A stretch of DNA of 64,000 nt from the IMG/VR virus record IMGVR_UViG_3300017987_005501; one strand, given 5' to 3'. This DNA is from a virus. Taxonomy: Duplodnaviria > Caudoviricetes. A program made the position numbers and the translations under genes. Below, piece by piece: positions 36,558 to 62,503 of this stretch (positions are counted from its first letter, which is position 1; each line of letters opens with the position of its first letter). Below the pieces are notes generated by a model. The model was not told the DNA's origin. It worked only from the letters and a program-made list of their open reading frames with translations, and made no database searches.

Positions 36558-37217
36558 TTATAGTCCTCTCTCTTTGAGCCAAGCAGCGATTTTCATAAGA
36601 TTCTCGGCTTCATCAAGAAGAGCTTTACTACGGGAAGCAGCATCCTTTAGCATACTAGCATTCTTGGTTTTATTCCATACACCAAGATCATAATAAGTTT
36701 GGTTATCACTTTGATCCCCATAGGTTTCTTTTGCTTCTCTAACCGCTTGTTCATAAGACATTGTCATGTCGTCCAGTTCTTTTTGACTCATACGGTTTTG
36801 TTCCTCAGCAGAAACCCCATGCATATAATCATGGGGCTTACCTTCGCTAGCATTTTTAACAGCTTCGCGTTGCTCTCTACGATTATGTGCGTTCTGTTCC
36901 TCAGCGGAAATCCCATGCATATAATCATGCATATCTTCTTCATCTGGCCAGCCAGCACTCTTATCACTAGCTTCCTCACTAACTTCTTCGCTAGCTGTTT
37001 TTTCACCAGTATCTTTTAGACCACTTGTTGACCAAGGCTCTTCCGCTTCAGAAACATCCTTGAGTTCATCATAAAATTCTTTGCGTTGCTCTTCTTGGGG
37101 AACCCCATGCATATAATCCTGAGGCTTATCTGCTTGTTTCTTAAAGACAGCGTCGAGCTCTTTTGCAATATCAGCAATGTCGTTTGCGATCTTAATGAAT
37201 TCAGATTCAGATGACAT
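36558..37217 (-). CDS. Acidic protein with three DYMHG..EEQ repeats and many K-x-A motifs
   Basis: GGAG RBS; motif copy upstream; repeats visible in protein and DNA. Confidence 0.75.
   Translation of the reverse strand: MSSESEFIKIANDIADIAKELDAVFKKQADKPQDYMHGVPQEEQRKEFYDELKDVSEAEEPWSTSGLKDTGEKTASEEVSEEASDKSAGWPDEEDMHDYMHGISAEEQNAHNRREQREAVKNASEGKPHDYMHGVSAEEQNRMSQKELDDMTMSYEQAVREAKETYGDQSDNQTYYDLGVWNKTKNASMLKDAASRSKALLDEAENLMKIAAWLKERGL
36795..37127 (-). repeat. Three intragenic repeats KP[QH]DYMHG[VI][PS][QA]EEQ
   Basis: DNA core cccatgcatataatc at about 36817, 36912 and 37104. Confidence 0.85.
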
Positions 37218-37275
37218 TTCTTATTCTCCTTTATTTTTAAATAGAAAATTTGTAATTACATTCTAATCAGAAAAT

Positions 37276-37288
37276 TAATGGATTATTA
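37276..37288 (-). promoter_or_regulatory. Conserved intergenic motif copy (TAATAATCCATTA)
   Basis: Plus strand taatggattatta, immediately after a terminator, 59 nt above the ATG at 37217. Confidence 0.7.
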
Positions 37289-37292
37289 ATGC

Positions 37293-37328
37293 AAAAAGGC
37301 ACTTCTTATCATTAAGAAATGCCTTTTT
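37293..37328 (-). terminator. Intrinsic terminator after the metallophosphoesterase
   Basis: AAAAAGGCACTTCTTA-TCAT-TAAGAAATGCCTTTTT; one mismatch on the minus strand; A/T tracts on both sides. Confidence 0.75.
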
Positions 37329-38209: not shown

Positions 38210-38215
38210 TAAAAG

Positions 38216-38892: not shown

Positions 38893-38918
38893 CTTAAAAC
38901 TACTGAGTTAGTAGAAAA

Positions 38919-43103: not shown

Positions 43104-43942
43104 AGGGTACCAGTTACTTTAATCCTATGAGTATGTTTTCCCTCAACCCCATCAGCTGGAAATACAATACCCCCTTTTACCTCGTGCTTATGCGTATATG
43201 GGGATTGAATCCCATTCCCAACATTAAATGCTTCTAGAAACCCATCGCCTACTTGATTAAGGTAAGCATCGATATGTGTATGGGAAAAAATTTGTAACTC
43301 ATCAACCCCAGGCTTTGCTTCCGTTGAATCATATAATCCAGTTAAAAATCGATGGATTGAATGGGTATGGAATTCTTCTAACCTCTGTCCATTTCTTTCA
43401 GCAGGACCAACATAAACCCCATCAACTATATGGTAATGTTCGTTCGAGCCGCAGGCATCAAACAAAGAGGTTGACCCTCTTCCCGATAAGTTTGGAACTA
43501 CCAAATGGAAATGTTCTGTAATCCTATCGTTTCCAATAACCCCACCTGTTAGGTATTCCCTTTTTTCAGACTTAAAAATTCTATAAATTTTAGATTCAAT
43601 GTTTGCAGCAATCCCATAGTTTGCAAGAACTGCTGTTATTAAGTCATTTAATTTTTCAACCTCTTTAGGGCGAGGCCCAAGTTTAGCTTTTTGTTTCTCT
43701 AAGAAATTTGTGTTATATGAAACTGTTTTAAATATTAGAGTATATCTTTCTAGTGAGGTTTCCACCTCTAGGCTTGACTCAATAGGGACAAGCCCATTCT
43801 TCTTTAATTCCAGCCTCAAGGCCTCTTCTAAAACCTTAAATGAAAATTCTTTTTCTAAGTCAAAAAGAGAGCTGATCTCGCTTGGGTAGGCAAGACCAGC
43901 TACTGTTTTTGTTTCATATATTTTAAGTGGTTTAGTCCCCAT
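43100..43942 (-). CDS. Hypothetical protein with six H-x-H repeats in its C-terminal half
   Basis: EHFHL, EHYHI, FHTHS, SHTHI, THKHE, KHTHR. Confidence 0.7.
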   Translation of the reverse strand: MGTKPLKIYETKTVAGLAYPSEISSLFDLEKEFSFKVLEEALRLELKKNGLVPIESSLEVETSLERYTLIFKTVSYNTNFLEKQKAKLGPRPKEVEKLNDLITAVLANYGIAANIESKIYRIFKSEKREYLTGGVIGNDRITEHFHLVVPNLSGRGSTSLFDACGSNEHYHIVDGVYVGPAERNGQRLEEFHTHSIHRFLTGLYDSTEAKPGVDELQIFSHTHIDAYLNQVGDGFLEAFNVGNGIQSPYTHKHEVKGGIVFPADGVEGKHTHRIKVTGTL

Positions 43943-45458
43943 TAGTCCCTATAAACCTTGTTGAAGGCCGAACCGCTCCCCGGTCAAAAACAAGTTGTTG
44001 CATTGACCTGTCCCCTTGTTGGGAAGAGCTAAATTGTCGGCAATCCTCTGCATATTGTAAAATAAGGAAATCTTTTAATTCCCCTATTGTTATTATACCA
44101 TTAGAGTCCAAATCTGCAGCACCATTAACTGCCCTTCTGAAAAATAGTGAAAGGTATCCACCAGCTCTAAATCTACTAGCCACTAAGGAAGTCATGTCCT
44201 CTTCTGAAGAGAAAAATCCAACTCTATTAGGGGCAGATATGACATCCCTACTGAAACCACCAGCAAAACAAGCATCTAAGACAATTAGCTTCAAGGCATC
44301 GTCATTTAATGTTCCAAATAAATCGTTCATTTCATCGTCTGAGACGGGACCACCTGGAGTATGTAATGTTTCTTGTCTTCGATCGATTTCATCTTCGTAC
44401 CGAGAATTTTCACTCGAGCGACTTCCATGCCCGGAATAAAAAAAGATAAAAATATCATTGGAATCCACCTGCTCGCTCATAGTCTCAAAGGCATTACGAA
44501 TACTTGTTGGGGAACATTCTCGGTCCAAGAGTAATATCATTTGATTTTCCGCCATTAAATCCTGATTAAGGTAAGCTTGAGCCAACTCTTCCGCGTCTTC
44601 TCTACAATACCTTAAGTTTCCCCATCCACCGTAGTCATTACAACCGCAAAAAATACCATAATAAGTAATATCGCTTGGCAAAATTTCATTTGTTCTTGCT
44701 TCGATTGTTAAGGTATAAGGACCTACTTCATGTGCATAGGAAGTACAGGAGATTCTATAGACTGCGTAACGGGGTAACAATTCAATCCGGGAATTAGTTG
44801 CTTCAAAATCATCATTTTCGACCGAGAACTCTTCCGCTTCTAGCTTTAGGTAACAATCAATTTCATCCGATTCCATCGTAATAATATATCGTAGGTCAGC
44901 CGAAACAACCAAGTCGTAGTAGTCTACAAACTTATTTTCGTTAATAATATCCGTTTCTGTTAACTCCCCTTCAAAAATTCCAGGCTCTTCAATCCTGATT
45001 ATTTCCGGTTCGGATGGAAGTTCGGGGGCACTCAATGTTAAGGTATAGGTACCAGTTGTTTCTTTTTTAAAGGTGGTTACAATAATATAATAGTTTCCAG
45101 TAATTTCTGCAATAAAATCTAATTCAGAGTCCCGGTTAAAAAGGCCGATGTCGTCGTTTTCAAAATAAGTGTCTTCTGGGCCTTCTATTTTTAGGAAAGT
45201 ATCAAACTCATTACTTTCCAGCCTAACAGAACATGTTTGATCTTCTTTTAATGAAAAAGAATAATATTTATAATATTTCTCTTCTTCCTGCGCACAAGAT
45301 TCATCAAGGGCATCTTCTATAACCGCCCCGTTTTCAATTTCTATAGGTAACCCTCTTGATCCTTCCAAGGGTGGGGCAGGTTCTATTGATTGTGCGTTAG
45401 CTATAGATACAAAAGAAATAAGAAATAAGACGAGAATGGGGGACTTAAATTTAAACAT
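43932..45458 (-). CDS. Signal-peptide-bearing caspase-family (peptidase C14) protease with two PPC-like domains (508 aa; start reassigned to 45458)
   Basis: AGGAGG RBS before MFKFKSPILVLFLISFVSIANA; two Y......ESNEFDTFL....ENDD PPC-like domains; YGIFCGCNDY, FFYSGHGS (His) and IVLDACFAGG (Cys). Confidence 0.85.
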   Translation of the reverse strand: MFKFKSPILVLFLISFVSIANAQSIEPAPPLEGSRGLPIEIENGAVIEDALDESCAQEEEKYYKYYSFSLKEDQTCSVRLESNEFDTFLKIEGPEDTYFENDDIGLFNRDSELDFIAEITGNYYIIVTTFKKETTGTYTLTLSAPELPSEPEIIRIEEPGIFEGELTETDIINENKFVDYYDLVVSADLRYIITMESDEIDCYLKLEAEEFSVENDDFEATNSRIELLPRYAVYRISCTSYAHEVGPYTLTIEARTNEILPSDITYYGIFCGCNDYGGWGNLRYCREDAEELAQAYLNQDLMAENQMILLLDRECSPTSIRNAFETMSEQVDSNDIFIFFYSGHGSRSSENSRYEDEIDRRQETLHTPGGPVSDDEMNDLFGTLNDDALKLIVLDACFAGGFSRDVISAPNRVGFFSSEEDMTSLVASRFRAGGYLSLFFRRAVNGAADLDSNGIITIGELKDFLILQYAEDCRQFSSSQQGDRSMQQLVFDRGAVRPSTRFIGTNGD

Positions 45459-45489
45459 ATAACCTCCTAGGGGTTTAATAAAGAAGGGT

Positions 45490-45933
45490 TTAAGCGCAGC
45501 TACAAACTTCTCCACCACAAATGGGGCAGAGAGTTTCGGCTTCTGCTGGTTTCCCTTCAAGGTGGGAGAGTGGTTCTTCTAAGTGTTCTGGGAATTCTTC
45601 AACTTCGTGTTGTTCGATTAATCCTACCAGTTCCTCTACTAGAGGCTGCTCCCAAACAACACCATAATTATTGAGAACATTAATAACCCTAGACTGGAGT
45701 TCGTAAATTTCAGAGTCTCCTTCCATTTCCATAACTTGTCCACAACCTTGGCCTTTACCTGGGCCAGCACCCTGACCATGTGGGCCCGTTTGGTCTCTGA
45801 TAAAGTCTGGGGTTGCTATAGGAAGAGGAGCTGGCATTTCTGGAACCATAATATCTCCAGTAAGCCCATAGTTGGCTTCGAGTTCTGTTGCAACACGAAG
45901 AAGCATGTTTGAAAGTTTTCTCTTATTATCCAT
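45490..45933 (-). CDS. Hypothetical protein with C-terminal CPIC..CSC
   Basis: 147 aa; motif copy 55 nt upstream; LLRVATELEA helix. Confidence 0.65.
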   Translation of the reverse strand: MDNKRKLSNMLLRVATELEANYGLTGDIMVPEMPAPLPIATPDFIRDQTGPHGQGAGPGKGQGCGQVMEMEGDSEIYELQSRVINVLNNYGVVWEQPLVEELVGLIEQHEVEEFPEHLEEPLSHLEGKPAEAETLCPICGGEVCSCA

Positions 45934-47991: not shown

Positions 47992-48531
47992 TTAATCTTT
48001 TGGTTCGTCAATTTCTTCGGGTATTTCAGGAAGATCTTCTTCTAGTGTTTCCTTTTTGGGAGCTTCTTCTGAAAAATCTAATGATTCCCCGAAACCCTCA
48101 TCTAAAGCAGGAGGTTCCTCCCCCTTAAATCTATTTCCTGGGAAAACCCTATCGTGCCTTGCCTCAATTTTAGGCCAATCCTGGTTGATTTTTTGCTGAA
48201 TTAAGCTAGAAATAACATTTACATCCATCTTAGATAATTTTCTATCTAAAATCCCGTAATCTCGCAGTTTTTGGAGAATCTCTTTGGTTAGAAAGTTTTT
48301 AATAATTTCTTCTCGGGCACTGAGATCTCCAACCCCGTCTAGGTCGTTTTCAATCCTTCTCCTTCTTCCAAAGAGTTGCGTATAAATATAATCGATGTCG
48401 TTTGTAACAAGGAAGTCGGCTGCTCGAGAAGTGGCCTCTGTTATATCGAAATCTGAAACGGACGGCAAACTAGCCGCCCGTTTCATAAGGAGAAGTGCTC
48501 TATTTACGAGTTTATGGGAAAGAGATATCAT
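47992..48531 (-). CDS. Hypothetical protein, acidic C-terminus
   Basis: 179-aa ORF in a tightly packed operon; KRAASL motif. Confidence 0.65.
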   Translation of the reverse strand: MISLSHKLVNRALLLMKRAASLPSVSDFDITEATSRAADFLVTNDIDYIYTQLFGRRRRIENDLDGVGDLSAREEIIKNFLTKEILQKLRDYGILDRKLSKMDVNVISSLIQQKINQDWPKIEARHDRVFPGNRFKGEEPPALDEGFGESLDFSEEAPKKETLEEDLPEIPEEIDEPKD

Positions 48532-48533: not shown

Positions 48534-49406
48534 TTAGTCATTATCGTCTTCAGGAGACTTAAATCTCTCGAGATCCTTGCTTTCTTTTTCTTCTTTTTTC
48601 TCCTCTTCCTCAACAAATTGTTCGGGAGTCATAATAATTGAAGAATCCCCGCCTGCACGCAAAACAATTTGGTTTAGGAGGGATACTATTTTTTCTTTTT
48701 CTGTCTCTTCGCAGATTCCTTCAAACAAGTCATCAATTTTTGTAAAGATGTTTGCATTAGTCCCATTAATAATTAACATAATGTAGTCGCGAATATCTTT
48801 ACGCCTTTTTTCCTCATCAAGTTCATTTATAGTATCAAAAACTAAATTTAATACCGTTTTGAAGTTGAAAGGGGAATTCGCTGTTTTCGAATCATAGATA
48901 AACCGGACGGCATCTAAAACTGACCCTTCGCTGATTTGCGGACAATATTTTTCTGCTAATTTTTCAAACGCAACTTTTTTAGATGCTCTTTTATTATAGT
49001 AGTATGAAACTTCCCTGAGAATTGGGAAGACGTTAGAACTATAATAAATATTAGCTACCGCACTTAAACTAGCAATCCTAGACATTTTTCCACTTACACC
49101 TTTGTCCAAGTTAAATTTTCTATTCTGCTCTAGCATATAGTCAGTATAGAAGTTTGGGCGGTCATGGTTAAGAAGATTAATATTAACCCCAACGTCGGAA
49201 TAAGGAGTTAATGGGACTAATTCCTCTGGTGCCCTTTGTTGTAACCCCCCAATTGGGAAGACAACGCTTACTTTTTGTATTTGTGGATGAACACCAGCGA
49301 CAATTCCCACATAAGGTGAAACTTGTCGATCTGAAATAAACCATTTAACAGGTTGGCCGATTGCAAAGTCTTCGGCAGCTACAGTCATGGGAAAAAGTGC
49401 TGGCAT
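48534..49406 (-). CDS. Hypothetical protein (SH3/KOW-like N-terminus possible)
   Basis: DFAIGQPVKWF...YVGIVAGVHPQIQKVSVVFP; RIASL, KTANS motifs. Confidence 0.7.
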   Translation of the reverse strand: MPALFPMTVAAEDFAIGQPVKWFISDRQVSPYVGIVAGVHPQIQKVSVVFPIGGLQQRAPEELVPLTPYSDVGVNINLLNHDRPNFYTDYMLEQNRKFNLDKGVSGKMSRIASLSAVANIYYSSNVFPILREVSYYYNKRASKKVAFEKLAEKYCPQISEGSVLDAVRFIYDSKTANSPFNFKTVLNLVFDTINELDEEKRRKDIRDYIMLIINGTNANIFTKIDDLFEGICEETEKEKIVSLLNQIVLRAGGDSSIIMTPEQFVEEEEKKEEKESKDLERFKSPEDDND

Positions 49407-50082: not shown

Positions 50083-50538
50083 TTAAACTTTTCTTTTTGG
50101 AATTGTGCGAGCTACTTTATTCCCCTCAGGAAGATTTTCATCTCTCCAGGGATTTTTCCAATCAGCAGTTGATTTTGGATTATCTTCGGTATTTAAGTCG
50201 CGAACTGGAGGCTCTTTATGGACAGAAACTGTTTGAGATTCACGGCCAGCAGCATTTTCGAAAGGTTTCATATACCTCTCTTCATCTGCGTCGCCCATAA
50301 TGGTTCCAGTTTGGTTATAACGATTCATATACCGACTTTCATCAGTATCCCCCATGAGCCACTCCCCATTCTTCGTGCGGAAGCCGTGCTCCGAAGCAGC
50401 CTTTTCAAAAGCGTCATTTGCCTTATCGATACGATAAGCAAAATACTTTCTTTGGGCATCTGATAGGTATGGCGACTTCTCAACTTCGGCCGCAATCTCA
50501 TCCAATTGCGCAGCGATCTTAATTGGATTAAAACCCAT
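50083..50538 (-). CDS. Small acidic protein, paralog of 49666..50061 (start reassigned to MGFNP at 50538)
   Basis: AGGAG RBS before 50538; QLDEIAAEVEK, WLMGDTDESRYMNRY, DADEERYMKPFEN, VRDLNT. Confidence 0.75.
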   Translation of the reverse strand: MGFNPIKIAAQLDEIAAEVEKSPYLSDAQRKYFAYRIDKANDAFEKAASEHGFRTKNGEWLMGDTDESRYMNRYNQTGTIMGDADEERYMKPFENAAGRESQTVSVHKEPPVRDLNTEDNPKSTADWKNPWRDENLPEGNKVARTIPKRKV

Positions 50539-50539
50539 A

Positions 50540-50671
50540 TTACTTCTCCTTTTGGTTTCCATAAACTTCGATATTAATAATTCTTGCATATTTGTCTGCA
50601 AGGATTTTTGCTAATTTCGTATCCCCACTCTTGATAGCCTGTACAAGTTTTTTCTTTAATTTATCTTTCAT
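50540..50671 (-). CDS. 43-aa basic helical protein missed by the ORF track
   Basis: MKDKLKKKLVQAIKSGDTKLAKILADKYARIINIEVYGNQKEK*; ATG overlaps the upstream stop (TAATG); fills the gap exactly. Confidence 0.6.
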   Translation of the reverse strand: MKDKLKKKLVQAIKSGDTKLAKILADKYARIINIEVYGNQKEK

Positions 50672-52455
50672 TAGTTTACAAAATGGTCATTTAGCCAATG
50701 AATTAAAATTTCTATTTCGTCTTTAATTAAATCAATCTGTTTAGGATCGATAAGTTCCAGATCAAATGTTAATGTGACATTAGTAAAAGCCCGATCGTTT
50801 TCGATATCTTTTTGGACAACCCCATTCCCAGAAATGTTATAATCAACATAACCAAATTTTCCATTTAAAAGTCGTTCTAACCTTTGTTGGAAAATTCTCG
50901 CAGCTTTTTTCAAGCTATCAAAATCAATACCTTTTTCACTAAATAAAGTTAATGAAAAGGCCGGCTTATAATCATCGTTTACTTGTTCAAAATCAAGAGA
51001 GTAACTATAATCAAGATCCCCTGAAGTTAACGACTTAATATGATCATAAATTTCTGCCTCGAAAACTTTTTTAGTAAATTCTGGAACATCGCTATGCTCT
51101 AATCTTTTAAGATCTATATCATCCCTTAAATTTTCCCATTGTTCATCTAGAACTTTTAAGGCTTCTTCCTTCCCTTTGATCTGATCTTCAAGGGAATTGA
51201 TTGCTTCCTTTAATTTATCTCGTTGGGACAGGATTGTATTTTCTTTTTTCTCGAGGGTTTTTACTGGTCCCTTATAACCACCCTTAAAAGCAAAAGAATC
51301 TGGAGAAACTCGTGCTAACTCCCCGTTTCCAACCGCCCCTGTGATAATCTCATCTATTTCTTCTTCCTCTATAGAATAATTTGTTTTTAGATGGTAACTA
51401 AGGTCATCCCGAGACATATTCTTTTTCTTTTGAAAAAGTTTCTTTAAGGAAGTTTTTGGATTAAACTTCTTTTTAGCCGCTACCTTTATCTTTTTTTCAG
51501 TAACTTCTTTTTTAAGAGAAGAAATAGTAGTTAATAATTGAAAAGCGGTTTTTATATTTTCTGGCAAATCTGGCCAAACTTCATCAAGTTTCCCTTTTAC
51601 GTCGTAATAAATATCCTTTTGATAATAATCCCGCATAATAACACTTTGAATCTTTGGAGAAACCCTTAATTTCTCAAGAGCCACCCAGGCAGCGTTTGAA
51701 TCCCGGATATTCATTTCATCGTAAAGTTTTGCCCTAACCGCATCAACTTCCGCTCGGAACTTTGATTGTGGGGTATCTTTATCTTTTGCAACGATATCTC
51801 TACCCGTATCCTCCTTAACTAAGGTTACAAGCATCGTTTCATAGTCATTGTAATCAATTTTACTTTGATATTTTCCGCTTTTCATACTCCAGATAACTTT
51901 CTCCAAAGCATCCCGCCACTTTACTTGAGAATGCCAACTAATATCGTCTGTTACGACTCCCCAAGGCCCCGTTTTAGCATATTTATCCAAGATCGGATCA
52001 ACATTCTCTTTTGCTGCCGCCATAATTGTTTCTAGGTCGCTGCGCATAACGTCTCTTTTATCTGTATAATCCGAATAGTATTTTGTTCTTTTATCAAAGA
52101 GAGGGAATGCTTCATAAACTGATTCCTCTGAGAATTCCTTCTCCCCATAAGCCTTCTTGATAAGCTTTGAAAGTTTGTTTGGTTCTTTTTTCAAAACGCC
52201 ATCCGATTTTCTTTTTTCTTCATCCTCTTCCTTGTCGGGGTCCTTTTCCTTCGGCCCCTCGTTTATTTTCTGTTGCCAAGGCTGACGACCTCTTTTTAAT
52301 GCAGAGACAGGTTTTCTATCTGTTTTCGGCCCGTCCCCATAAGGATTTCTCATATCCGGGTCGTTCTTATCCGTGTTAATCTTCGCAGCTTTTTCAAGGG
52401 TTGAGTTTTTTAACCCTTTCAAAGCCCTAAGTTTTTCTTCATTAGAGTGGTACAT
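50671..52455 (-). CDS. Hypothetical multidomain protein (594 aa), probable head/internal protein
   Basis: First gene after a motif copy downstream of the portal; Lys/Glu-rich with several K-x-A motifs. Confidence 0.7.
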   Translation of the reverse strand: MYHSNEEKLRALKGLKNSTLEKAAKINTDKNDPDMRNPYGDGPKTDRKPVSALKRGRQPWQQKINEGPKEKDPDKEEDEEKRKSDGVLKKEPNKLSKLIKKAYGEKEFSEESVYEAFPLFDKRTKYYSDYTDKRDVMRSDLETIMAAAKENVDPILDKYAKTGPWGVVTDDISWHSQVKWRDALEKVIWSMKSGKYQSKIDYNDYETMLVTLVKEDTGRDIVAKDKDTPQSKFRAEVDAVRAKLYDEMNIRDSNAAWVALEKLRVSPKIQSVIMRDYYQKDIYYDVKGKLDEVWPDLPENIKTAFQLLTTISSLKKEVTEKKIKVAAKKKFNPKTSLKKLFQKKKNMSRDDLSYHLKTNYSIEEEEIDEIITGAVGNGELARVSPDSFAFKGGYKGPVKTLEKKENTILSQRDKLKEAINSLEDQIKGKEEALKVLDEQWENLRDDIDLKRLEHSDVPEFTKKVFEAEIYDHIKSLTSGDLDYSYSLDFEQVNDDYKPAFSLTLFSEKGIDFDSLKKAARIFQQRLERLLNGKFGYVDYNISGNGVVQKDIENDRAFTNVTLTFDLELIDPKQIDLIKDEIEILIHWLNDHFVN

Positions 52456-52532: not shown

Positions 52533-54599
52533 TTAGTCTTCTTCCTCTTTTTTCTTCGCATTTTTTTTGTATTCCAAGAACTCCTGATATTCTTTATCTT
52601 GAATTGTTCTGTACTCTTGGAATTCCTTAGAAAACTTTTTCGCGAGGAAATCAAGGAAATTGGAAGGTTCTGGGGAGTCCACAGAAGCCGTTTTGTCGAA
52701 CGCAAATCTTCCGAGTTCCCCTCCCTCTCCTTCGGCTTTTTGCTCAACCTCTTCCAACCCAAGGTTCTCTCTTAAAATTTCAACAATATTGCTTGATTGG
52801 ACGACTTGTTCAGCCGAACCATCGTAGAGTCGGGAAATAAGATCGTTAAACCTTGAATCATTCACCGTAAAGAGATCTTGCTCTAATTTTTCTTTTACGT
52901 CGTCTGAGTCAATATTCCATAGGTCCAGAATAAACTCGACTGGTAAGCTTCCTTTTTGATAAAGGGAAAAGAGTTGTTCATATAAATCGGCATTATCTCT
53001 AATTGCTAAACGGGTAAACTTAAGAGAAGGGACAATTGGATTAATTTTCCCATCAACAGGGTCAACCTCAACAAAACCCTTTTTAAAACAAATTGGCTTG
53101 AATACGTAATTTTCAACCCAGAACTTTAATTTTTCCCTAAAGTTAAGATAAATAGTATTCATTACCTCTAGGGTAATTCTATTCCCTCCATAAGTCCCTT
53201 CCCCGGTTAGGAGCTCCTTTGTAACTCCAAGCCCGACTAGGAGCCTTTTCTCTGTTTCTTCATATTCAGACCCAAGATCGAGAAGTCTTTCTCTTGCGCT
53301 GATTTGGTCCCAGTTAATTTGATAATTCGCAACAATTGCATAATCCGGATCAACTAAGGCTAGATCAACGTGCTCTCTTAATTCATCAACCTGGAAGTCG
53401 CTGAGCGTGTCACTCCAGACAATATGCTTCGGAGTTAATGCGCGATCTGCAATCATTGTTTGGGCCTGGCGTAATTTATCCCGATATAATAGGGTTCTTA
53501 AACATCTTTGTAGGATTGAAAGACCGAAATCTTCGTATTGGGACTTTCGGTTAGATAAATGATATACGTGAGACCCGGTTAGAGGGTCAGTATCCAGGGG
53601 GATGGGCTCCTGAGACTGGACCCTTTCAAGGATTGCTGGTGGGATATTATCAAGAATCTCTGAAACATCTTCATTAGAATCCCCTGTTTCAATTAATTTT
53701 CTCATAGAGTCAGAGGGTTGAAGCGAGATCTTAACCTCATCCGTAAAATCGAAAGATTCTAATAAAACTTGGTCTGGAGGAAGAACAATAATACGTTTCC
53801 AGCCTTTATAATCTATATTCTTAAAATTCCATTTTTTATATAGCTTATTTATCTTATCCTGCTTTTCTTTTTGCTCCGAATTATTTGATGGCTTTTCCTC
53901 AATTGCGCCGTCAACAAATTCTTCAATGTTTTGTTGAACCTCTTCAAAGTCGCTTTTTAGCTCCTCATCAATTTCGTTTTCTCCCCCAGAAAAATTATCA
54001 TCTAGGTAATCTGCAATTGCGTCGTCTTCGTCTTCGAAAGTAGTTCCTTCGGGCATATCCTCTTTTTCAAGATATTCAGGAACTGGATATTCATCTTCAA
54101 GTCCTTCTGTGTCTTCCTCAAGGAAAATAAAGCAATTTCCCTGCAACCAATATTCGTGAGCAATTTCTTGTAATCTCTCAAATAATCGGAGATGATCACA
54201 AATCCGCATAAAATATCTCCAGATATAATTTGCTTTTTCTCTATCCTGACATTTTGGTAATCCTAGGGTGACCTTACTTAAAGGGAGGTCACAGTGAATA
54301 TCAATTGCTCTTGAAATAATTTCGTCGTTCTCGTACCAATGTCGGTACCACTCTCTTCTTTCCTGGATAGACCGAGGTAACTCAAAGTAATCCGTACTAA
54401 GCTGTGGGGAGTAAAATGGAAAATTTCCACTCTGCATTAAGTCGACATCAGAAGCGGTTCTAATATTAAATTTTCCAAAAGTTGGTTTAGCTACCTTTGT
54501 AATTTTTCTATTAGGGGAGGAACCTAGAGGACGGGAATCCCCTTGATTTCCCGGTGTTTTTTCGGATGAGCGACGTTTTCGTCTTACATCGTCTGCCAT
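52533..54599 (-). CDS. Portal protein (688 aa) with acidic insertion
   Basis: Two genes downstream of TerL; REWYRHWYENDEIISRAIDIHCDLPLS, VYHLSNRKSQYEDFGLSILQRC, KLRQAQ..IA.R..TP, LLVGLGVTKELLTGE portal-like motifs. Confidence 0.8.
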   Translation of the reverse strand: MADDVRRKRRSSEKTPGNQGDSRPLGSSPNRKITKVAKPTFGKFNIRTASDVDLMQSGNFPFYSPQLSTDYFELPRSIQERREWYRHWYENDEIISRAIDIHCDLPLSKVTLGLPKCQDREKANYIWRYFMRICDHLRLFERLQEIAHEYWLQGNCFIFLEEDTEGLEDEYPVPEYLEKEDMPEGTTFEDEDDAIADYLDDNFSGGENEIDEELKSDFEEVQQNIEEFVDGAIEEKPSNNSEQKEKQDKINKLYKKWNFKNIDYKGWKRIIVLPPDQVLLESFDFTDEVKISLQPSDSMRKLIETGDSNEDVSEILDNIPPAILERVQSQEPIPLDTDPLTGSHVYHLSNRKSQYEDFGLSILQRCLRTLLYRDKLRQAQTMIADRALTPKHIVWSDTLSDFQVDELREHVDLALVDPDYAIVANYQINWDQISARERLLDLGSEYEETEKRLLVGLGVTKELLTGEGTYGGNRITLEVMNTIYLNFREKLKFWVENYVFKPICFKKGFVEVDPVDGKINPIVPSLKFTRLAIRDNADLYEQLFSLYQKGSLPVEFILDLWNIDSDDVKEKLEQDLFTVNDSRFNDLISRLYDGSAEQVVQSSNIVEILRENLGLEEVEQKAEGEGGELGRFAFDKTASVDSPEPSNFLDFLAKKFSKEFQEYRTIQDKEYQEFLEYKKNAKKKEEED

Positions 54600-54603: not shown

Positions 54604-54930
54604 TTACTCCATTTCATCAAACAACGATAATCCTAAAATTTCGTCGTCATCGTCTTTGGTCTTCTTTTTGAAAAACTTTTTTTTGCGAGCGACTTTTTCA
54701 TCGTTAGGGGTTCCAAGAGCTTGTAATCGTAGAAGAGCCTGTTTACTAATTCCTAGATTTCTTAAATTAAGAGAAGCCGCCCCCCGAATCTCTTCAAATC
54801 TAAGATCGCGCGAGATAGCAATTACATCTCTATAAGCCTTTTGAATCCCCTCAAATTTTTGAATTATATCAATTTGCTCATGTTCAATAAAAGCTAAAAT
54901 ATCTTCTAAATCCTTATTTTTTCTAGTCAT
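54604..54930 (-). CDS. Hypothetical protein
   Basis: 108 aa between TerL and portal; EKVARKKK motif. Confidence 0.65.
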   Translation of the reverse strand: MTRKNKDLEDILAFIEHEQIDIIQKFEGIQKAYRDVIAISRDLRFEEIRGAASLNLRNLGISKQALLRLQALGTPNDEKVARKKKFFKKKTKDDDDEILGLSLFDEME

Positions 54931-55243
54931 TTTTTCGCCTTAGATTAAAAGCAATCTTAAATAATTGTAGACTAGCATGCTTCGTCCCAACTTTTAACTC
55001 TGGAGGAGGATAAGCTAGTATCGCATTCCTACATAATTGAATCAAAGTATAATAGGCATCAGGGTTACTGGTTTCAACAAATTCATTTATTAATCCTTCC
55101 CGGGTCCATTTTGGAAATAATTTTTCCCAACTATCCTTAATATAACGATAATGCTCCCTTTTAATCTTTTTTACACCCATTTGGTTCTGAAATACGAAAT
55201 TAATTATTTCTTTCACTTGCTTTGGGAAATATTTTCGAGACAT
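54923..55243 (-). CDS. Hypothetical protein
   Basis: 106 aa, abuts TerL; KHASL and FKIAF motifs. Confidence 0.65.
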   Translation of the reverse strand: MSRKYFPKQVKEIINFVFQNQMGVKKIKREHYRYIKDSWEKLFPKWTREGLINEFVETSNPDAYYTLIQLCRNAILAYPPPELKVGTKHASLQLFKIAFNLRRKND

Positions 55244-55244: not shown

Positions 55245-57026
55245 TTAGTGTCCTCTTCTTAAGGGACCTAGGTTTCTTCTCGGAAGACCTCGCTTTGGCC
55301 TCTTTCCGGCACCAGCAATTGTTCCACGAGACATACTGGAACTTCCTGACATTCTAACGTTTGAATTGCCTTTTTCTAAATCTTCATAGGCTAAGGCTAC
55401 CATTCGAGCCAAGGCGTCGCTTAAGTCGTCTTTCCACCCGCCCGAATTAGGCTTATTAACCCTTTCAACATAATCACTTACAACCTTTCTCTGAAGATGC
55501 CGTAATTCTTGAATCATCTCTTCATCGTAGTAAAGTTTGATTTTTTTATCCATTAAAAGTTTTCTAAACATTTTATATTGGTCAGACTTTTTTCTTTCAG
55601 AGACAGCAAATCTTCTTATTGTTTTTAAGCCTCGTCTTGCGAGACCTTGTTCGAAACTAAATCCTTCTTCCTGGTCAAAGATACCCGCTTTAATATAGAA
55701 TCGATTATTTAGATTTTGAATATAATCTAAAAGTTTTTCTGTATCTAAAACTTTAGTGCCACCTTCAAAGTCGGTATTAACGAAATCAATATCATCCTTA
55801 TTTTTGGGGCTAATTACTCGATGAAAATCCAATTCTATTTGATTCTCTTCATTTACGTGTCCAATTGCAATCGCGGTTCCATCTTCTGTAAAAGCTAGGT
55901 CTACCCCCATGTAATGGGGGACCCCAGGTCTTCCCATTTGTTTTTGTCCTTGGTCTGGGTCAATACATTGCATTAAAAATTGGCTATCTCCAATCCAACT
56001 AGTAATTTCGTCAGTGAATTTGGCACCATACTCACAGGCAAAAACGGCTGGGTCTTTTGACTTTTGGAGCTTTTTCATTTCTTCAATTCCTGCATCGGAT
56101 TGAAAAATGCTATTAACTTCCCACGTGGGGGCTTGAATTACTAAGGCAGCAGTTTCATCCACCGTGTTTTCTAAAGCATGAATATATTGTTCCCAAAAAA
56201 CCCCTGATTTCCCCAAAGGGCTACTAATCAAGATTACTTTACCATCAATTTTTCCTTCGGGGTTAATAAAAGTTTTTGTTGAGGGCTCAATTGCTTCAAA
56301 AACATTTCTATCGCTTGCGTCTGATTTTGCTTCCGCAATAAAGTGGGCAATTTCGTCAATAATTGCAACAATATTTGAAGCCCCCCGCAAACCTTTACCC
56401 TGACAACTTTTAACCCTTACGTGAATGGAAGGAACAGTATCGAACTTTTTATCATATTCTGTTTTAAAGGTCTGGAACAGAGATGCGTTATTTGAAACAT
56501 ATTTACCGAAGAAGGGGCAATCATTATAATGTGAGCGCATTTCATCGAAAACTTCTTTTGCTTGCTCTTTCCCCGTAGCAACACAAGTAATACTAATCTT
56601 TGTGTTTTTCTTTACGCCATAAAAGTCGTGCGGATTTTCTAAGTTTAGTAACCGATATGTTTCGTAAGATGCAATGGAAGAAGTAATTAGGGACTTTCCA
56701 CTTCTTCTACCGCAAATTAGAATTAGTTTATTTTTATGTTTTAAAACATCATCATGACTTCTTAAGTTAGTTCTATTCTCTTTTGAAAGATGATGTAGGT
56801 ATTCCATTTCAGTTAAGGTATCAATTAAATTAAATTTATCATCGTAAACCTTAATTGTTCTATTGACAGCATCGAGAGGTAACCCATAAAAGCATTTCAA
56901 AATAAATTTCTGCACTGGGAATAGCTGCCATCCCAAACCCCAAGAGCTTTCAATATAATCAATAATAGGCTTGATCTGCCCTGCTTTGCCTTTTCTAAAT
57001 TGTCTAACTCTGTCTGCTACCCCCAC
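55245..57026 (-). CDS. terL: Terminase large subunit
   Basis: Walker A LICGRRSGKS, Walker B AIIDEIAHF, motif III ILISSPLGKSG, nuclease YMGVDLA and KDDLSDA. Confidence 0.95.
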   Translation of the reverse strand: MGVADRVRQFRKGKAGQIKPIIDYIESSWGLGWQLFPVQKFILKCFYGLPLDAVNRTIKVYDDKFNLIDTLTEMEYLHHLSKENRTNLRSHDDVLKHKNKLILICGRRSGKSLITSSIASYETYRLLNLENPHDFYGVKKNTKISITCVATGKEQAKEVFDEMRSHYNDCPFFGKYVSNNASLFQTFKTEYDKKFDTVPSIHVRVKSCQGKGLRGASNIVAIIDEIAHFIAEAKSDASDRNVFEAIEPSTKTFINPEGKIDGKVILISSPLGKSGVFWEQYIHALENTVDETAALVIQAPTWEVNSIFQSDAGIEEMKKLQKSKDPAVFACEYGAKFTDEITSWIGDSQFLMQCIDPDQGQKQMGRPGVPHYMGVDLAFTEDGTAIAIGHVNEENQIELDFHRVISPKNKDDIDFVNTDFEGGTKVLDTEKLLDYIQNLNNRFYIKAGIFDQEEGFSFEQGLARRGLKTIRRFAVSERKKSDQYKMFRKLLMDKKIKLYYDEEMIQELRHLQRKVVSDYVERVNKPNSGGWKDDLSDALARMVALAYEDLEKGNSNVRMSGSSSMSRGTIAGAGKRPKRGLPRRNLGPLRRGH

Positions 57027-58404: not shown

Positions 58405-61323
58405 TTAATCCAGGTAATCACTTATATCTAAACCTCCAGAATCGGTATCTACATTAACATCGAAATCTGATTTAACTTCAAATTGATCTATATCAGACTC
58501 TAGCTGCACTGGTGGTTTTTCTTTTTCCTGAACGACTGAAACGTCGTATGTATACTTCTGAATTGTACTTGCAATTATTTTATCCAGCTCAAATTTTGGA
58601 AGTTGTGAAGCATATTTTCTATAAATTAGCTCAATATTAACCCCACTTAAGAGATCAGTTTCGATATTCTTAGCAATTTTGCTAACTGCCAATTTTTCTT
58701 TTCTAATGGGGGCTTCTCCAGTATGCTTTAATCCTCCAACTTTTACTTTTTTCTGCTTCTTATATCTAAAGGCACTTTGAATTACCTTCTTAGGATCATT
58801 TGAAGCTACCTTGTAATTTGCATCAAGTCTATTATTCCCGTTAAGTAAATTAATATAGCTCTTTGCTAATTCCGGGGTATAATTAACTTCTGAAACTAGT
58901 GGTCTTTTAATGAGGCTACAATATTTTCCTGCCTTATTATAAACACAACCAGCGCATTTGGAACTTGCTTGGACGTTACTCACATGGGCTGCTTTTCTAA
59001 TATATTCAGCTTGTTTATGACAATCCCCCCCATTAAAGATTGGGTTAACATAAACGTTTCCAAGGACAACATCTTCAGATGCTAATTTTGAAATTTCTGC
59101 TTTTGCCCAACCTAGAGCTTCTTGATCAAAATTCTGTTTAAGTATCTGAGCTAGCTCTGAACCATATTTTCCGTTATTCATATGGAATAGCATAGAAGTT
59201 TTAACTAGGTCAACTGTTGCCTTTTTATCCCTTATAACTTGTTTTTCTTCCCTTGGCGTTACTTGGACGCCACCAGTTCTTATCTCTTTTTGGGGTTTAG
59301 AAGTATAAGCAAGCCTCAACATTTCGCGGATGTCCTTAATTCTTGCTAATTCAGAGATTTGCTTCGAACCTAACTTTTTATTCTGTTGAAGCCAAAGTAG
59401 GTGTTCTTTTGCTATTTTAACCCAATCAATATCTGCAGAGGCAACTTTAATCGAAGATCCAAAATTTTGAACTTTCCCAAGAATATCTTTTTTATAAGAA
59501 GTGCAACGACCACCCTTATTGAAAGGACACCCGGAACATTTAGAAGCAACTTTTACGAAAGCAAGTTTTGCCTTTTTATTTGCTTCTTTTGCTCCCTCTT
59601 TACAGTCGGTATAGTTATCTGGATCAATATAGACATTACCCAGGAGCCCTAATTCCTCGGAAGCTTCCTGGAGAGCATGCTTTTCCTGAAGAATTTCTTG
59701 TGCTCCAAATTTTTGTTTAATCGTATTATGAATCTGTTCTGCAGATTTTCCCCGATGCATTTCTTTTTTAAAGAAATCTGTAATTGGGGTTGGGAGCTTA
59801 TAAGATTCTGTTTTATGTATTTTTAAAGGTAAAGGTTTATTTTGAACCCCGCCTTCTTTAATTTCCTTCTTTTGATGCAAGAAAGCGTCTTTAATTGTCC
59901 CGAGGCTTGCTTCCTTAGTTAAGAATTGTTTTTTATCGGTGGAGGTTAACCGTTTTGCCTGGTAAAGGTTTTCAATAATAGATGGATACAGTTTAGTAAT
60001 ATCCAAATCCGATAAGTTAGCAGTTATTGTTTTATTGAAAAGAGAACAGGTGTTACAATTTCTATGGACGCAGGTACTGCAATTTGGAGTCGACCCAATA
60101 AATGGAGCGTTGCGAGCGTTTGCAGTTTTAGTTAGCTCCCCTTTTGCCGCTTTACAGTTCCAGTTCCAAGGGGAAGACGTAATATAGAGGTTACCTAATA
60201 ATCCTTGTTCATCCAATAAGGACCCTAAATTCTTTCCAAATTTCTTTAATGTTTTTACCCCAAACTTAGAAGCAATTCTTTTTCCAAGCTCCTTACCCGT
60301 AAAACCTTGTTGGATTTGCTTAGAAGTAAAATCCCAAATAGGTTTTAAGTCCCTCTGATGCTTTAAGGCTTTTTCTAACTCTGCTTTATTTGAAGCTGTC
60401 TTTTTAAGTTCATCTACAGCATTATCTATTTCTTCCTTTGATAGCTCTTTCCATTCAGGGTAACCTTGCACTCCGCCGATTTTTATTTCTTCTGGTGTTT
60501 CGTGTACAAACGCAAGTTGTAGGGCTTTCTCTGGGTTTTCGCTATTTTTAATAGAGTCAACATGAGACGAATCAATTTTCCCAGTAGTTAAAAGTTTCTG
60601 GGTAAACATATTGATTAATGCTGGGTCGTAATTTAAGTTTGAAACAATAGTTTTGTTAAATTTAGCACAACTACCATTCTGGTTGAAAACGCACCCCTGG
60701 CACTCAGGCATTTCTTTAAGATAAGGAGCATCATTCATAACTCCTCTTAATTCCCGAGCCCCTTCCTCACAGCTTTTTGGTGGTTTCGCTACAGAAGAGA
60801 TAAAAATAGATGGATCAATATAAACATTCCCTAAAAGCCCGTATTCCTGCTCAACTAAATAGTTTATTGAAGGTATTGCTTGTTCCAGAGCTTCCATAGG
60901 ATAATGTTGATTAAATTCAGCAAAAATATCATTTAGGTCATTTCCTAATTGCACTTTCCGCCTAAAGGAATAAATAATATGCCCGACTAGCTCCAGCATT
61001 TCTTCGCTGCTAGCTTCCTTGTTTTGAGTAGTTGGCAAACTTCTATGAGAATCTTCATAAAAATTTAAAACTGGTAACCCCTCATAGCGATGAATTGAGG
61101 TAGTATGGTCCCAGAGATCTTCGAGCTGAGGAACACTATTTAAGCTTTTTTGAACATCTGGAAGGGTTTGGTGCTTGTTATAATTTCTGGGATCTACTTC
61201 TAACCAAGAACCATCCCAAACGGCCCGTGCTATTTTGCTTCCATAAAATTCTGTTAAATCGAGAGGTTGATTATCTATTTTTCCCTCGTCGAAAAAATTA
61301 GAAAGGTCGCCTGCGCTTGCCAT
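58405..61323 (-). CDS. 972-aa protein with four Cys4 repeat domains
   Basis: Four copies of LGN[VL]Y...C-x~20-C-x2-C-x7/8-C, each followed by GG[VL][QK]. Confidence 0.8.
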   Translation of the reverse strand: MASAGDLSNFFDEGKIDNQPLDLTEFYGSKIARAVWDGSWLEVDPRNYNKHQTLPDVQKSLNSVPQLEDLWDHTTSIHRYEGLPVLNFYEDSHRSLPTTQNKEASSEEMLELVGHIIYSFRRKVQLGNDLNDIFAEFNQHYPMEALEQAIPSINYLVEQEYGLLGNVYIDPSIFISSVAKPPKSCEEGARELRGVMNDAPYLKEMPECQGCVFNQNGSCAKFNKTIVSNLNYDPALINMFTQKLLTTGKIDSSHVDSIKNSENPEKALQLAFVHETPEEIKIGGVQGYPEWKELSKEEIDNAVDELKKTASNKAELEKALKHQRDLKPIWDFTSKQIQQGFTGKELGKRIASKFGVKTLKKFGKNLGSLLDEQGLLGNLYITSSPWNWNCKAAKGELTKTANARNAPFIGSTPNCSTCVHRNCNTCSLFNKTITANLSDLDITKLYPSIIENLYQAKRLTSTDKKQFLTKEASLGTIKDAFLHQKKEIKEGGVQNKPLPLKIHKTESYKLPTPITDFFKKEMHRGKSAEQIHNTIKQKFGAQEILQEKHALQEASEELGLLGNVYIDPDNYTDCKEGAKEANKKAKLAFVKVASKCSGCPFNKGGRCTSYKKDILGKVQNFGSSIKVASADIDWVKIAKEHLLWLQQNKKLGSKQISELARIKDIREMLRLAYTSKPQKEIRTGGVQVTPREEKQVIRDKKATVDLVKTSMLFHMNNGKYGSELAQILKQNFDQEALGWAKAEISKLASEDVVLGNVYVNPIFNGGDCHKQAEYIRKAAHVSNVQASSKCAGCVYNKAGKYCSLIKRPLVSEVNYTPELAKSYINLLNGNNRLDANYKVASNDPKKVIQSAFRYKKQKKVKVGGLKHTGEAPIRKEKLAVSKIAKNIETDLLSGVNIELIYRKYASQLPKFELDKIIASTIQKYTYDVSVVQEKEKPPVQLESDIDQFEVKSDFDVNVDTDSGGLDISDYLD

Positions 61324-61335
61324 CTAAAATTACTC

Positions 61336-62094
61336 CTATGTCTTTTGATTCCAATATCTTTTAGTTGCTTCTTTTAATTTTGCGAATTCTTTTTTCTTGT
61401 CTTCTTTTGAAGCAGTTCTTGTTAGATTTCCAAGATTCCCAGTTTCGTCGTAAATTTTCTTAATTTCCTTCACCTCATTTAAGCCTAGGTCTTTACCTAA
61501 AATATACTTACATATCTTAACTATACGCTTCTCTGTAGATGTGAAGTTTTTAAGAGAGGCTACCTTTGGGGTTGGAAATTCGAAGGTAACAATTTCCTCA
61601 TCTTCTTCTGATTCCTCAAAAGGAAGAAGGTCTTCAAGGTCTTCCATATCCTCGTCGCCAACTATTTCATCAGCGGATTCAATAATCTCTTCTTTTTCCT
61701 CGATGACTTCTTCGATGTCATCTTGTTCCTCGTCTGGAACTTTATCAATCCAGAGAGGATTTTTTAACTCGTCAGCAATTGTATCACTTAAATCGCTTAG
61801 GATTTTCAAACTCGAGTTAAAACTTTCTTTCATTTCCTTAATATCCTGAACATACCCATTTCCGCCCAGTTTACCATCAGGAGAAATTGCGGAAGATTTA
61901 ACCCCGAAAAACATGCGATGGGCAGCAACTAAAGCTTCCAAGGAGCTATTTAACTCCTCCAAAATATCCTTTAATTTAGACAGCTCTGTAATATCATAAT
62001 CGAAACCTGGAATACTTTGGCGGGGGGAATCAGATCCCGTGGCTGCTGTTTTTTTTAGAAAAGCCTGTACTACTTTTGAAGCTTTATTTGTCAT
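61336..62094 (-). CDS. Hypothetical acidic protein
   Basis: 252 aa; KKTAAT, PKVASL, TRTASK motifs. Confidence 0.7.
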   Translation of the reverse strand: MTNKASKVVQAFLKKTAATGSDSPRQSIPGFDYDITELSKLKDILEELNSSLEALVAAHRMFFGVKSSAISPDGKLGGNGYVQDIKEMKESFNSSLKILSDLSDTIADELKNPLWIDKVPDEEQDDIEEVIEEKEEIIESADEIVGDEDMEDLEDLLPFEESEEDEEIVTFEFPTPKVASLKNFTSTEKRIVKICKYILGKDLGLNEVKEIKKIYDETGNLGNLTRTASKEDKKKEFAKLKEATKRYWNQKT

Positions 62095-62107
62095 TTCAAA
62101 GTATCTC

Positions 62108-62503
62108 CTAAACAGTATCTGCTAGTGGGTCAGGACCATCAAAAAGTTCTTCAATATAATATTCACCCTTTGTATCTTTTTTTAGCTCCCAAAGATCCTT
62201 AGTCGATTTATGAATTAGCTTTTGAGAGTTTCCAATTCGAACGAATCCATTCCTTTTAAGGTCTGAGGCACTTTTTACCCTATACCTTTTAGGAGGTTTA
62301 GTTAAGTGTAAAAAAGGGCTAATCTCGTCAGATTGAAACTCGGGAGAAAAATCTTTTGCCTGTTTTTGGCTTGTTAACGATTGATTAAAGGACTCTCCAT
62401 CCTCACACTCAAATAAAACTTCTTCGAAGACATTCATACTATTCGAAATATGAATATTATTTAAGTCCCACTCGTTTGATGAATTTTGTTTTTTGTCACC
62501 CAT
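62108..62503 (-). CDS. Hypothetical protein
   Basis: 131 aa; first gene after two motif copies; VKSASDL. Confidence 0.7.
   Translation of the reverse strand: MGDKKQNSSNEWDLNNIHISNSMNVFEEVLFECEDGESFNQSLTSQKQAKDFSPEFQSDEISPFLHLTKPPKRYRVKSASDLKRNGFVRIGNSQKLIHKSTKDLWELKKDTKGEYYIEELFDGPDPLADTV

Follow-up and report, generated by a model that had tools for sequence, protein, structure and literature searches.

The tetrapeptide [KR]-x-A-[SA] recurs in many unrelated proteins encoded near the terminase and portal genes of an uncultured tailed phage (Duplodnaviria; Caudoviricetes; IMG/VR record IMGVR_UViG_3300017987_005501). The stretch analysed here, 64,000 nucleotides (nt), is called the window, and the motif had been noticed between its positions 36558 and 62503. 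Judging from the sequences, the motif is probably the recognition site of the prohead maturation protease of this lineage, which would cut [KR]-x-A↓[SA] (the arrow marks the bond) in a layout like that of the R-site and the M-site of herpesvirus UL26.

The proposed enzyme would be a serine protease of the T4 gp21/herpesvirus assemblin fold, cutting after Ala, with Lys or Arg at P3, Ala at P1 and usually Ser or Ala at P1'. It would release its own catalytic domain at an N-terminal site (N-site) and a C-terminal site (C-site), the latter comparable to the herpesvirus R-site, and would remove the C-terminal tail of an acidic scaffold protein, as happens at the herpesvirus M-site. The N- and C-terminal extensions of the portal would be trimmed inside the prohead. 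Several orphans encoded around the terminase and portal would be cut or fragmented as well; as substrates cut inside the prohead, they would probably be packaged as head-internal, core or ejection proteins. We infer that the scissile bond follows Ala, because Lys/Arg and Ala are invariant while the next residue varies, and because enzymes of the T4/phiKZ type read P3-x-P1 and the homologous herpesvirus enzymes cut between Ala and Ser.

Motif excess in the head genes

All but one of the long open reading frames (ORFs) of the window lie on the minus strand. Family searches identified the large terminase and the portal and, in addition, RNase HII, DUF4915, caspase-like C14, PD-(D/E)XK nuclease, aminotransferase-like and QueD-like proteins and two lamin-tail-domain proteins, while most ORFs around the terminase and portal are orphans in Pfam and PHROG searches. 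The genes that serve as landmarks below are (lengths in amino acids, aa):

43932..45560, minus strand: caspase-like Peptidase_C14 protein (PF00656, E 7.5e-12), no motif
52533..54599, minus strand: portal, 688 aa (phrog_16240, E 4e-29)
55245..57026, minus strand: large terminase (PHROG terminase families), with RGAS214

The tetrapeptides cited in the original prediction are all present in the ORFs named there. Against composition-matched shuffles of each protein, the 31 ORFs of 36558-62503 contain 36 matches to [KR].A[SA], compared to 7.74 ± 2.75 in 1000 shuffles (maximum 18). The enzyme sub-block at 37358-47945 has 2 motifs versus 2.2; since this block lies inside the claimed stretch and shows no excess, the enriched set really consists of the ORFs of 47992-62503 plus the ORF at 36558-37217, referred to below as the head set. 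The other 26 ORFs of the window contain 13 motifs versus 10.6, which is not significant, and no excess is seen in the ~15,800 aa of the window that remain outside the head set.

Within the head set, [KR].AS occurs 24 times versus 3.0 in shuffles (z 11.6), and [KR].A is doubled (91 versus 43, z 8.1). The control patterns [^KR].AS, [DE].AS, [KR]A.S, [KR].SS and [KR].G all have z < 1 there, and as these register and charge controls are flat, both the basic residue and the exact register are needed for the signal. Only a mild enrichment is seen for [KR]..S (z 3.5). In an unbiased scan of 8000 gapped tripeptides of the form a-x-b-c, K.AS came first (18 versus 2.03, P 8e-12). The runners-up reached ~3e-6 at the same spacing and ~1e-6 over all five spacings (L.K.A, which overlaps the motif), placing K.AS ahead of the next pattern by roughly five to six orders of magnitude; the same scan found nothing comparable to K.AS in the rest of the window. 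The A-S/A-A pair is encoded by 13 different hexamers, and hence the signal is at the level of protein and not a DNA motif. Ser follows Ala in 24 of the 34 window head hits. The flanks match the background, except that Thr is preferred at x, and no heptad, amphipathic or hydrophobic periodicity was seen in them.

The portal of the window has more than 1200 metagenomic relatives, on contigs of up to 590 kilobases (kb). The deposited phages with related portals are an uncultured one of 485 kb, Tunturiibacter phage Tunturi_5 (309 kb) and Bacillus phage G (497 kb). A megablast comparison of the head block with deposited phages gave no match, nor did the portal used as a single-protein query against IMG/VR. 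The motif excess recurs in the head modules of three syntenic relatives, L001, L003 and L004, with portals 58-62% identical to that of the window.

It also recurs in the two named phages. We rebuilt the complete genome of phage G from its public record, called 626 ORFs and divided the genome into 25 bins of 20 kb. Only the bin at 0-20 kb, which holds the terminase, portal and protease, is strongly enriched (23 versus 6.1, P 1.3e-7); the other 24 bins, ~477 kb in total, have 101 motifs versus 92.5 when pooled, and the lowest P of any single one is 5e-3. In Tunturi_5, the strongest bins are that of the protease (P 1e-5) and one adjoining the terminase across the circular junction (P 5e-7). The ORFs richest in the motif there encode an annotated DNA ejection protein, a DarB-like antirestriction protein, the scaffold-like neighbour of the protease and the portal. 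Tunturi_5 provides a weaker test than phage G, as it is Ala-rich and has a mild genome-wide excess (232 versus 144).

Two ORFs of phage G (NC_023719) located far from the head module have the highest per-protein excess in that genome, and are candidates for extra packaged proteins. They are found at 386261-387376 (minus strand, 371 aa, 4 motifs versus 0.18) and 326002-330624 (plus strand, 1540 aa, 5 versus 0.92).

Sites in the protease, the scaffold-like protein and the portal

Phage G gp19 and a 519-aa protein of the relative L005, encoded seven genes downstream of its portal, match the head maturation protease family phrog_18299. The protease of the window's own phage was reached by seven exact-protein look-ups past the window end: look-ups 1-6 led to a contig 100% identical to window positions 42533-64000, and the last one to a contig 99.99% identical over a 13.7-kb overlap.

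L063:4171-5160 (~125.4-126.4 kb on the window scale by arithmetic, ~61 kb past the end of the window): prohead protease of the same phage, 329 aa (phrog_18299, E 1.2e-13)

This protein carries five motifs versus 0.58 expected, namely IKTAA5, RVAS35, KAAS281, KVAS287 and KLAS316. In an alignment of five members (the protease just described, that of L005, a second marine homologue, phage G gp19 and Tunturi_5 gp331), A37 of the N-site and K287 and A289 of the C-site are invariant, the C-site reading K-[VI]-A-[SN] throughout. In the protease of the clade, the sites thus border the catalytic domain on both sides. That domain has the T4 gp21/herpesvirus assemblin fold. H108, S165 (in S-M-G-C) and H191, candidates for the catalytic residues, are invariant across the five divergent members, and their equivalents are invariant in 102 homologues. 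A model of the L005 protease built from these 102 homologues is folded at residues 40-245 with a predicted local distance difference test score (pLDDT) above 90, disordered at 287-337 and helical at 339-519. Among 120 protease homologues we counted 239 motifs versus 122 expected. About 84 of the 239 fall into a single hot spot, G-D-[FY]-L-[KR]-A-A-[SA], directly past the fold and ahead of an acidic/Pro linker, and a second hot spot lies in the stretch 375-402, given as disordered. The proteases of phage G and Tunturi_5 end ~20 residues past the C-site; those of the L005 type run on into the helical domain. In phage G, sites are found at residues 43, 248 and 274 of 300 in the protease, and at residues 18, 55 and 625 of 648 in the portal.

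The catalytic domain, both in the 329-aa protease and in the family alignments, also contains a conserved Cys cluster, C-S-x-C-G ... C-x-H, resembling a zinc-ribbon insertion. We know of no such insertion in T4 gp21 or the herpesvirus proteases.

Another enzyme might act on the motif: the C14 caspase-like protein or a trypsin-like protease, the latter cutting after Lys/Arg, or else a kinase or glycosyltransferase modifying the Ser. A Peptidase_C14 gene is indeed present in the window, and the relative L001 has a trypsin-like gene; moreover, the mildly enriched [KR]..S (z 3.5) resembles, as [KR]-x-x-S, the sites of basophilic kinases. However, the C14 protein, which we tried as the processing enzyme and rejected, is itself free of the motif, and phage G has the motif but no C14 gene. 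In the window, no trypsin-like gene is found at the corresponding position. Modification of Ser is at odds with the best sites, where Lys/Arg and Ala are invariant and the position of Ser may be taken by N, A, G, D or F. Nor are [KR]A.S and [KR].SS enriched in the window. In the four lineages examined, no enzyme other than the protease of the gp21/assemblin fold is always found together with the motif. We consider the involvement of any of these other enzymes highly improbable.

Two further ORFs had been suspected to encode the protease and were rejected. One is the 290-aa ORF at 48534-49406, positioned like phage G gp19: it has no similarity to gp19, no match in Pfam or PHROG, no homologues in word searches and no Atlas match, and the real protease was found elsewhere. 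The other is a 751-aa gene met between the end of the window and the protease.

The protease gene adjoins the scaffold and major capsid genes. In the phage of the window, the 329-aa protease is followed by genes for proteins of 694 aa, 423 aa (acidic), 212 aa and 318 aa (incomplete). In L005, the order is the protease, an acidic 256-aa protein, a 202-aa protein and a capsid protein 37% identical to phage G gp27, and in Tunturi_5 the protease gp331 is accompanied by gp332 and the major head protein gp334. The acidic, scaffold-like 423-aa protein carries KTAS371 and KKAS394, 30-52 residues from its C-end; its 256-aa homologue in L005 has the same pair, KTAA217 and KKAS231, 25-40 residues from the C-end. 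Both proteins end in a conserved tail, L-W-K-[ST]-D-P-D-V. In Tunturi_5 gp332, KVAS is found 19 residues from the C-end.

Compared to L005, the head module is split here. The terminase, the portal and the motif-rich orphans are inside the window, and the protease, scaffold-like, decoration-like and capsid genes are ~61 kb off, on the opposite strand, behind replication genes (L057-L063, ~64-131 kb on the window scale). On the L057-L063 stretch, inteins interrupt RecA and the large subunit of ribonucleotide reductase; inteins occur in many portal homologues too.

The portal has sites close to both ends. In the window, the N-site RTAS47 (nt 54450-54461) is 13 residues upstream of the conserved core, and the C-site KTAS636 (nt 52683-52694) is just past a conserved G-R-F and is followed by a 49-residue tail. 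Among 120 portal homologues, the motif has a density of 10.0 per 1000 aa in the first 70 aa, 0.30 in the middle and 7.1 in the last 70 aa. Observed and shuffled hits number 84 and 29 in the first 70 aa, 60 and 17 in the last 70 aa, and 21 and 40 in the middle. The N-site is mostly located 12-19 residues ahead of an invariant F-Y-S-P-Q-L-S core, and [KR]x[AG] is found at most 30 aa before this anchor in 106 of 115 homologues; the residue that follows varies. At the other end, an acidic/Gly stretch ending in R-F is common to 109 homologues. Of these, 32 stop within three residues of R-F and 77 run past it; in 66, R-F is followed by SS or AS, giving R-F-[SA]-S, and then by a helical tail of 30-50 residues.

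The C-terminal helical extension of the portal has the consensus K-L-A-K-[IV]-x-K-[YF]-x-x-x-N-P-[ED]-K-L-D. It is polymorphic, being present after R-F-[SA]-S in about two thirds of the homologues (P0001-P0120) and missing in about a quarter.

Candidate substrates and conservation of single sites

Ten further entries describe motif-bearing ORFs of the head set:

36558..37217, minus strand: 219-aa orphan, candidate substrate; KTAS73, KNAS121, KNAS185, KDAA191, KIAA209 (5 versus 0.56)
47992..48531, minus strand: 179-aa protein (164 aa by another gene call); N-terminal M-K-R-A-A-S
48534..49406, minus strand: 290-aa protein; RIAS110, KRAS139
49666..50061, minus strand: 131-aa paralogue of the next ORF; N-terminal L-D-K-I-A-S (residue 10), KDAA113
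50083..50601, minus strand: 172-aa ORF (151-159 aa in public contigs; alternative starts), paralogue of the preceding one; N-terminal P-I-K-I-A-A, KAAS67
50671..52455, minus strand: 594-aa protein adjoining the portal; KVAA324, KKAA516 (2 versus 0.63); substrate status uncertain
54604..55243, minus strand: two overlapping small ORFs, 108 aa and 106 aa, between terminase and portal; RGAA49 and KHAS88, one each; substrate status uncertain
58405..61323, minus strand: 972-aa protein with four Cys4 modules of ~190 aa; the most motif-rich ORF (10 sites versus 1.24 expected)
61336..62094, minus strand: 252-aa protein with an acidic linker; KTAA15, KVAS177 (directly past the linker), RTAS226 (3 versus 0.27)
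62108..62503, minus strand: 131-aa protein; KSAS77

The sites of the 972-aa protein are KEAS102, KTAS308, RIAS349, KEAS470, KVAS591, KVAS626, KLAS746, RKAA776, KVAS838 and KYAS903, and its orthologues in the three syntenic relatives have 10, 9 and 13 sites. A profile search yielded 519 relatives of 426-1583 aa with a variable number of modules, a large uncharacterised group of huge-phage head-module proteins. In the 150 best family representatives (pairwise identity at most 50%), the motif occurs 796 times versus 213 (z 41), and the control patterns are flat. The 972-aa protein is a candidate internal head, core or ejection protein that would be processed into pieces. Each of its modules has a G-L-L-G-N-V-Y-I-D-P strand, a C...C-x-x-C...C cluster and a G-G-V-Q element. 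No similarity to phage G gp7 was detected by BLAST, and Foldseek found no meaningful match of the model described below in BFVD.

An AlphaFold 2 model of the 972-aa protein, made from 79 sequences, contains four confident Cys4 modules with low-confidence linkers between them. Sites 102 and 308 are in linkers, 470 and 838 in loops, three at the C-ends of helices, and 349, 591 and 626 inside the structure, 626 being within an insertion hairpin of lower confidence. The motif had been described as often lying at domain boundaries; in this model the description is borne out only in part.

Several of the smaller proteins have sites kept in orthologues. In the 252-aa protein, K-x-A is present at columns 15 and 177 in three of four orthologues, with a variable next residue. 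K-[SN]-A of the 131-aa protein at 62108..62503 is also seen in three of four; the fourth has lost it, and a K-A-A-S found a few residues farther downstream suggests turnover of the site. L-D-[KRE]-[IF]-A-[SA] is aligned in all four sequences of the paralogous pair at 49666-50601 and its orthologues. RIAS110 of the 290-aa protein, which aligns with KVAS in L001, is in the variable part that separates the C-domain from a highly conserved N-domain (1-70), and the L001 orthologue of the 179-aa protein has KLAS13. The orthologues of the 594-aa protein have KKAS288/KKAA507 and RIAS319, and no similarity was detected between this ORF and phage G gp15. No motif was seen in the orthologues of the 108-aa and 106-aa ORFs in the three syntenic relatives. 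The 219-aa orphan has no Pfam or PHROG match. The two paralogues share a core, W-L-M-G-D-x-D-E-A-x-Y-M ... D-E-E-R-Y-M, and L001 has the pair as well.

The original prediction had marked about 15 ORFs as virion head or ejection proteins. This goes too far, as a lone match in a protein of 100-600 aa is at chance level (0.1-0.6 expected per protein), and about nine ORFs either show an excess or share a site with their orthologues. By these measures, the likely substrates encoded in the window are the 972-aa and 219-aa proteins, the portal, the 252-aa protein, the 131-aa protein at 62108, the 172-aa protein, the 131-aa protein at 49666, and the 290-aa and 179-aa proteins. RGAS214 of the terminase is probably not a cleavage site, because the terminase is not a virion enzyme and all three of its orthologues have RGAA at this position. 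Outside the claimed stretch, the ORFs at 14806-15555 (minus strand; RTAS59, RTAS172; 2 versus 0.52) and 32497-33660 (minus strand; KDAS19, KKAA306, KPAS332; 3 versus 0.34) may be further substrates among tail-region genes, or may carry the motif by chance.

The N-terminal sites raise another explanation, that of a short linear motif which is left uncut and acts as a capsid-targeting or scaffold/portal-binding signal, loading cargo into the prohead like the T4 capsid targeting sequence minus the proteolysis. The motif does lie within the first 5-20 residues of several small proteins (P-I-K-I-A-A, L-D-K-I-A-S and M-K-R-A-A-S, and also I-K-T-A-A in the protease), and many sites of the 972-aa protein are on the surfaces of folded domains and not in linkers. 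On the other hand, a targeting signal would not explain the presence of 9-13 copies per protein of 970 aa, the sites that flank the protease domain on either side, those located 20-50 residues short of the C-ends of scaffold proteins, or the portal homologues that end at the site; also, the flanks have no amphipathic pattern. As an account of the motif as a whole we find it unlikely. For the N-terminal copies it may be partly true alongside cleavage, by analogy with T4, where both coexist.

Several observations weigh against cleavage at these sites. First, the capsid protein does not seem to be a conserved substrate: that of phage G has no site, and has E-T-E-E at the position aligned with KTAA of its L005 counterpart. 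Second, roughly half the sites in the model of the 972-aa protein lie within or at the ends of helices of confident domains, and the sites of the whole family are not enriched in coil (29% versus 41% background). Unless the excess in this family is partly structural, many of these sites would be cut only in the unfolded protein or never. Third, the position after Ala is varied at the best-conserved sites (S, A, N, G, D, F, T), making the tetrapeptide looser than was first stated. Fourth, the motif columns hardly differ from the same residue types elsewhere, with 64% versus 59% for K/R, 51% versus 37% for A (p 0.054) and 43% versus 33% for S in orthologues at 39-62% identity, and [KR].A is held in the aligned column in only 25 of 53 site-by-orthologue pairs. 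The expectation that the motif would be conserved in homologues thus holds for the excess, which is kept in the head modules of relatives, and not for single columns, whose conservation is not significantly above background at 58-62% identity. Still, [KR].A is found within ±8 columns in 42 of the 53 pairs, compared to ~27% by chance (a rough estimate). Such near-column retention, together with the stable copy number, fits a short linear motif with local turnover.

The same data bear on the possibility that the motif is a structural or compositional habit of a few helical families (for example, K-x-A-S as a helix C-cap), inherited and with no common function. In the 972-aa model, three of the ten sites are at helix C-ends and five more are in or beside short helices; 67% of the sites in the family map to helix, and kinship inflates the family-wide count. 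However, the motif spans unrelated folds, namely the portal, the protease, the acidic scaffold protein, the Cys4 modules and small orphans. It shows no excess in the remaining proteins of the window or in phage G outside the head module (101 versus 92.5). At most two of the ten sites in the 972-aa protein are repeat-equivalent, and sites turn over locally (the 42 of 53 pairs above, and one site lost and regained). We therefore regard an inherited habit as quite unlikely.

The proposal of a K/R-x-A processing site, made in the original prediction, is thus partly supported, by the head-specific excess, its spread over the clade and the positions of the sites, which border the protease domain, lie at the ends of the portal and come close to the C-end of the scaffold-like protein. 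Column conservation is weak, and cleavage itself is a prediction.

Relation to known maturation proteases and implications

In herpesvirus UL26/UL26.5, an R-site follows the protease domain, and cleavage at an M-site takes away the C-terminal tail that binds the capsid. In pseudorabies virus, the R-site is YLQA↓T and the M-site is VQA↓S, with 37 residues removed (PMC4498786). The predicted phage sites are similar in having Ala before the presumed scissile bond, as we infer it, and mostly Ser after it. They are also similar in placement. One site directly follows the catalytic domain, and in many relatives the same chain then runs through a linker into a helical, scaffold-like domain. In the scaffold protein, the other site precedes a conserved tail and stands 20-50 residues from the C-end; both the R-site and the M-site thus have a counterpart in position. 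The main difference is at P3, which is Lys/Arg in the phages and Val/Leu (M-site) or Leu/Val with Tyr at P4 (R-site) in herpesviruses; the hydrophobic P3 is thus not found here. The C-site of the phage protease is preceded by [FY]-L, and a one-residue shift of the register is needed to make it resemble Y-[VL]-[KQ]-A. Furthermore, the phage protease is only ~10% identical to herpesvirus assemblin (MEROPS S21) and has a Cys-rich insertion (C-x-x-C ... C-x-H) in its domain, and the phages have many more predicted substrates, including the portal and several orphans, their sites being predictions only.

Phage T4 is the textbook case of a shared prohead-protease motif, its gp21 cutting at L/I-x-E with Glu at P1. 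What is similar is a P3-x-P1 site common to unrelated head and internal proteins, N-terminal sites on small proteins and, as predicted here, self-processing of the protease. Unlike T4, with its Glu at P1 and hydrophobic P3, the predicted sites have Ala (rarely Ser or Gly) at P1 and a basic P3, and do not belong to the x-E class. The capsid protein of the clade also differs from that of T4, as it is a small HK97-type protein of ~280-320 aa without a long propeptide. The T4 portal is not known to be processed.

In phiKZ-like phages, whose proteases are gp175 of phiKZ and gp245 of SPN3US, many head proteins are cut at S/A/G-x-E, with several sites per propeptide and Ser preferred at P1' (PMC10052503). 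Their substrates are often internal or ejection proteins, and cleavage was mapped by mass spectrometry (PMC10052503). The shared features are a giant-phage protease, many head proteins as targets (here predicted ones) and a short common motif in the P3-x-P1 register. By contrast, phiKZ has Glu at P1, belongs to another lineage, and differs in its capsid protein and gene order, and its sites are mapped by mass spectrometry while ours are predicted.

Within the clade, phage G (Donellivirus gee) has a portal 28% identical to that of the window and a homologous protease, gp19; its capsid protein is 37% identical to that of L005, and its motif excess is confined to the head module (gp1-gp21). It differs in its Gram-positive host, its 497-kb genome and its protease, which is not fused to a scaffold domain. 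In the literature searched, which excludes the 2020 structure/proteome paper on phage G, we found no published cleavage motif for the phage G-like clade; cleavage motifs were described there only for phiKZ-like phages. What appears new here is the predicted specificity, basic at P3 and Ala at P1, combined with the herpesvirus-like placement of R- and M-sites, across a very large and mostly uncultured group of huge phages. In its widest form, the proposal is of a very large huge-phage clade (more than 1000 portal/protease relatives, contigs up to 590 kb, phage G included) in which a herpesvirus-like Ala↓Ser prohead protease is combined with a UL26-like logic of R- and M-sites. This we put forward tentatively, as a reading that may well not hold in full.

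The hypothesis is directly testable, as phage G is cultivated and virion proteomes are recorded. If validated, the motif would define a third specificity class, with basic P3 and Ala P1, beside the two of large myophages, and would strengthen the connection of herpesvirus assemblin with the prohead proteases of phages. It would also give the mature ends of the portal, protease and scaffold protein for structural work. A huge phage has genes for hundreds of orphan proteins, and hardly any such phage is in culture; the motif would flag those orphans that are built into the capsid or injected, here the 972-aa protein and about eight others, and in Tunturi_5 the ejection and DarB-like proteins. 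If this is true, the packaged and ejected cargo of uncultured huge phages could be read directly from sequence, and the cutting rule together with the protease-scaffold scheme would be older than the split between tailed phages and herpesviruses, or would have arisen twice.

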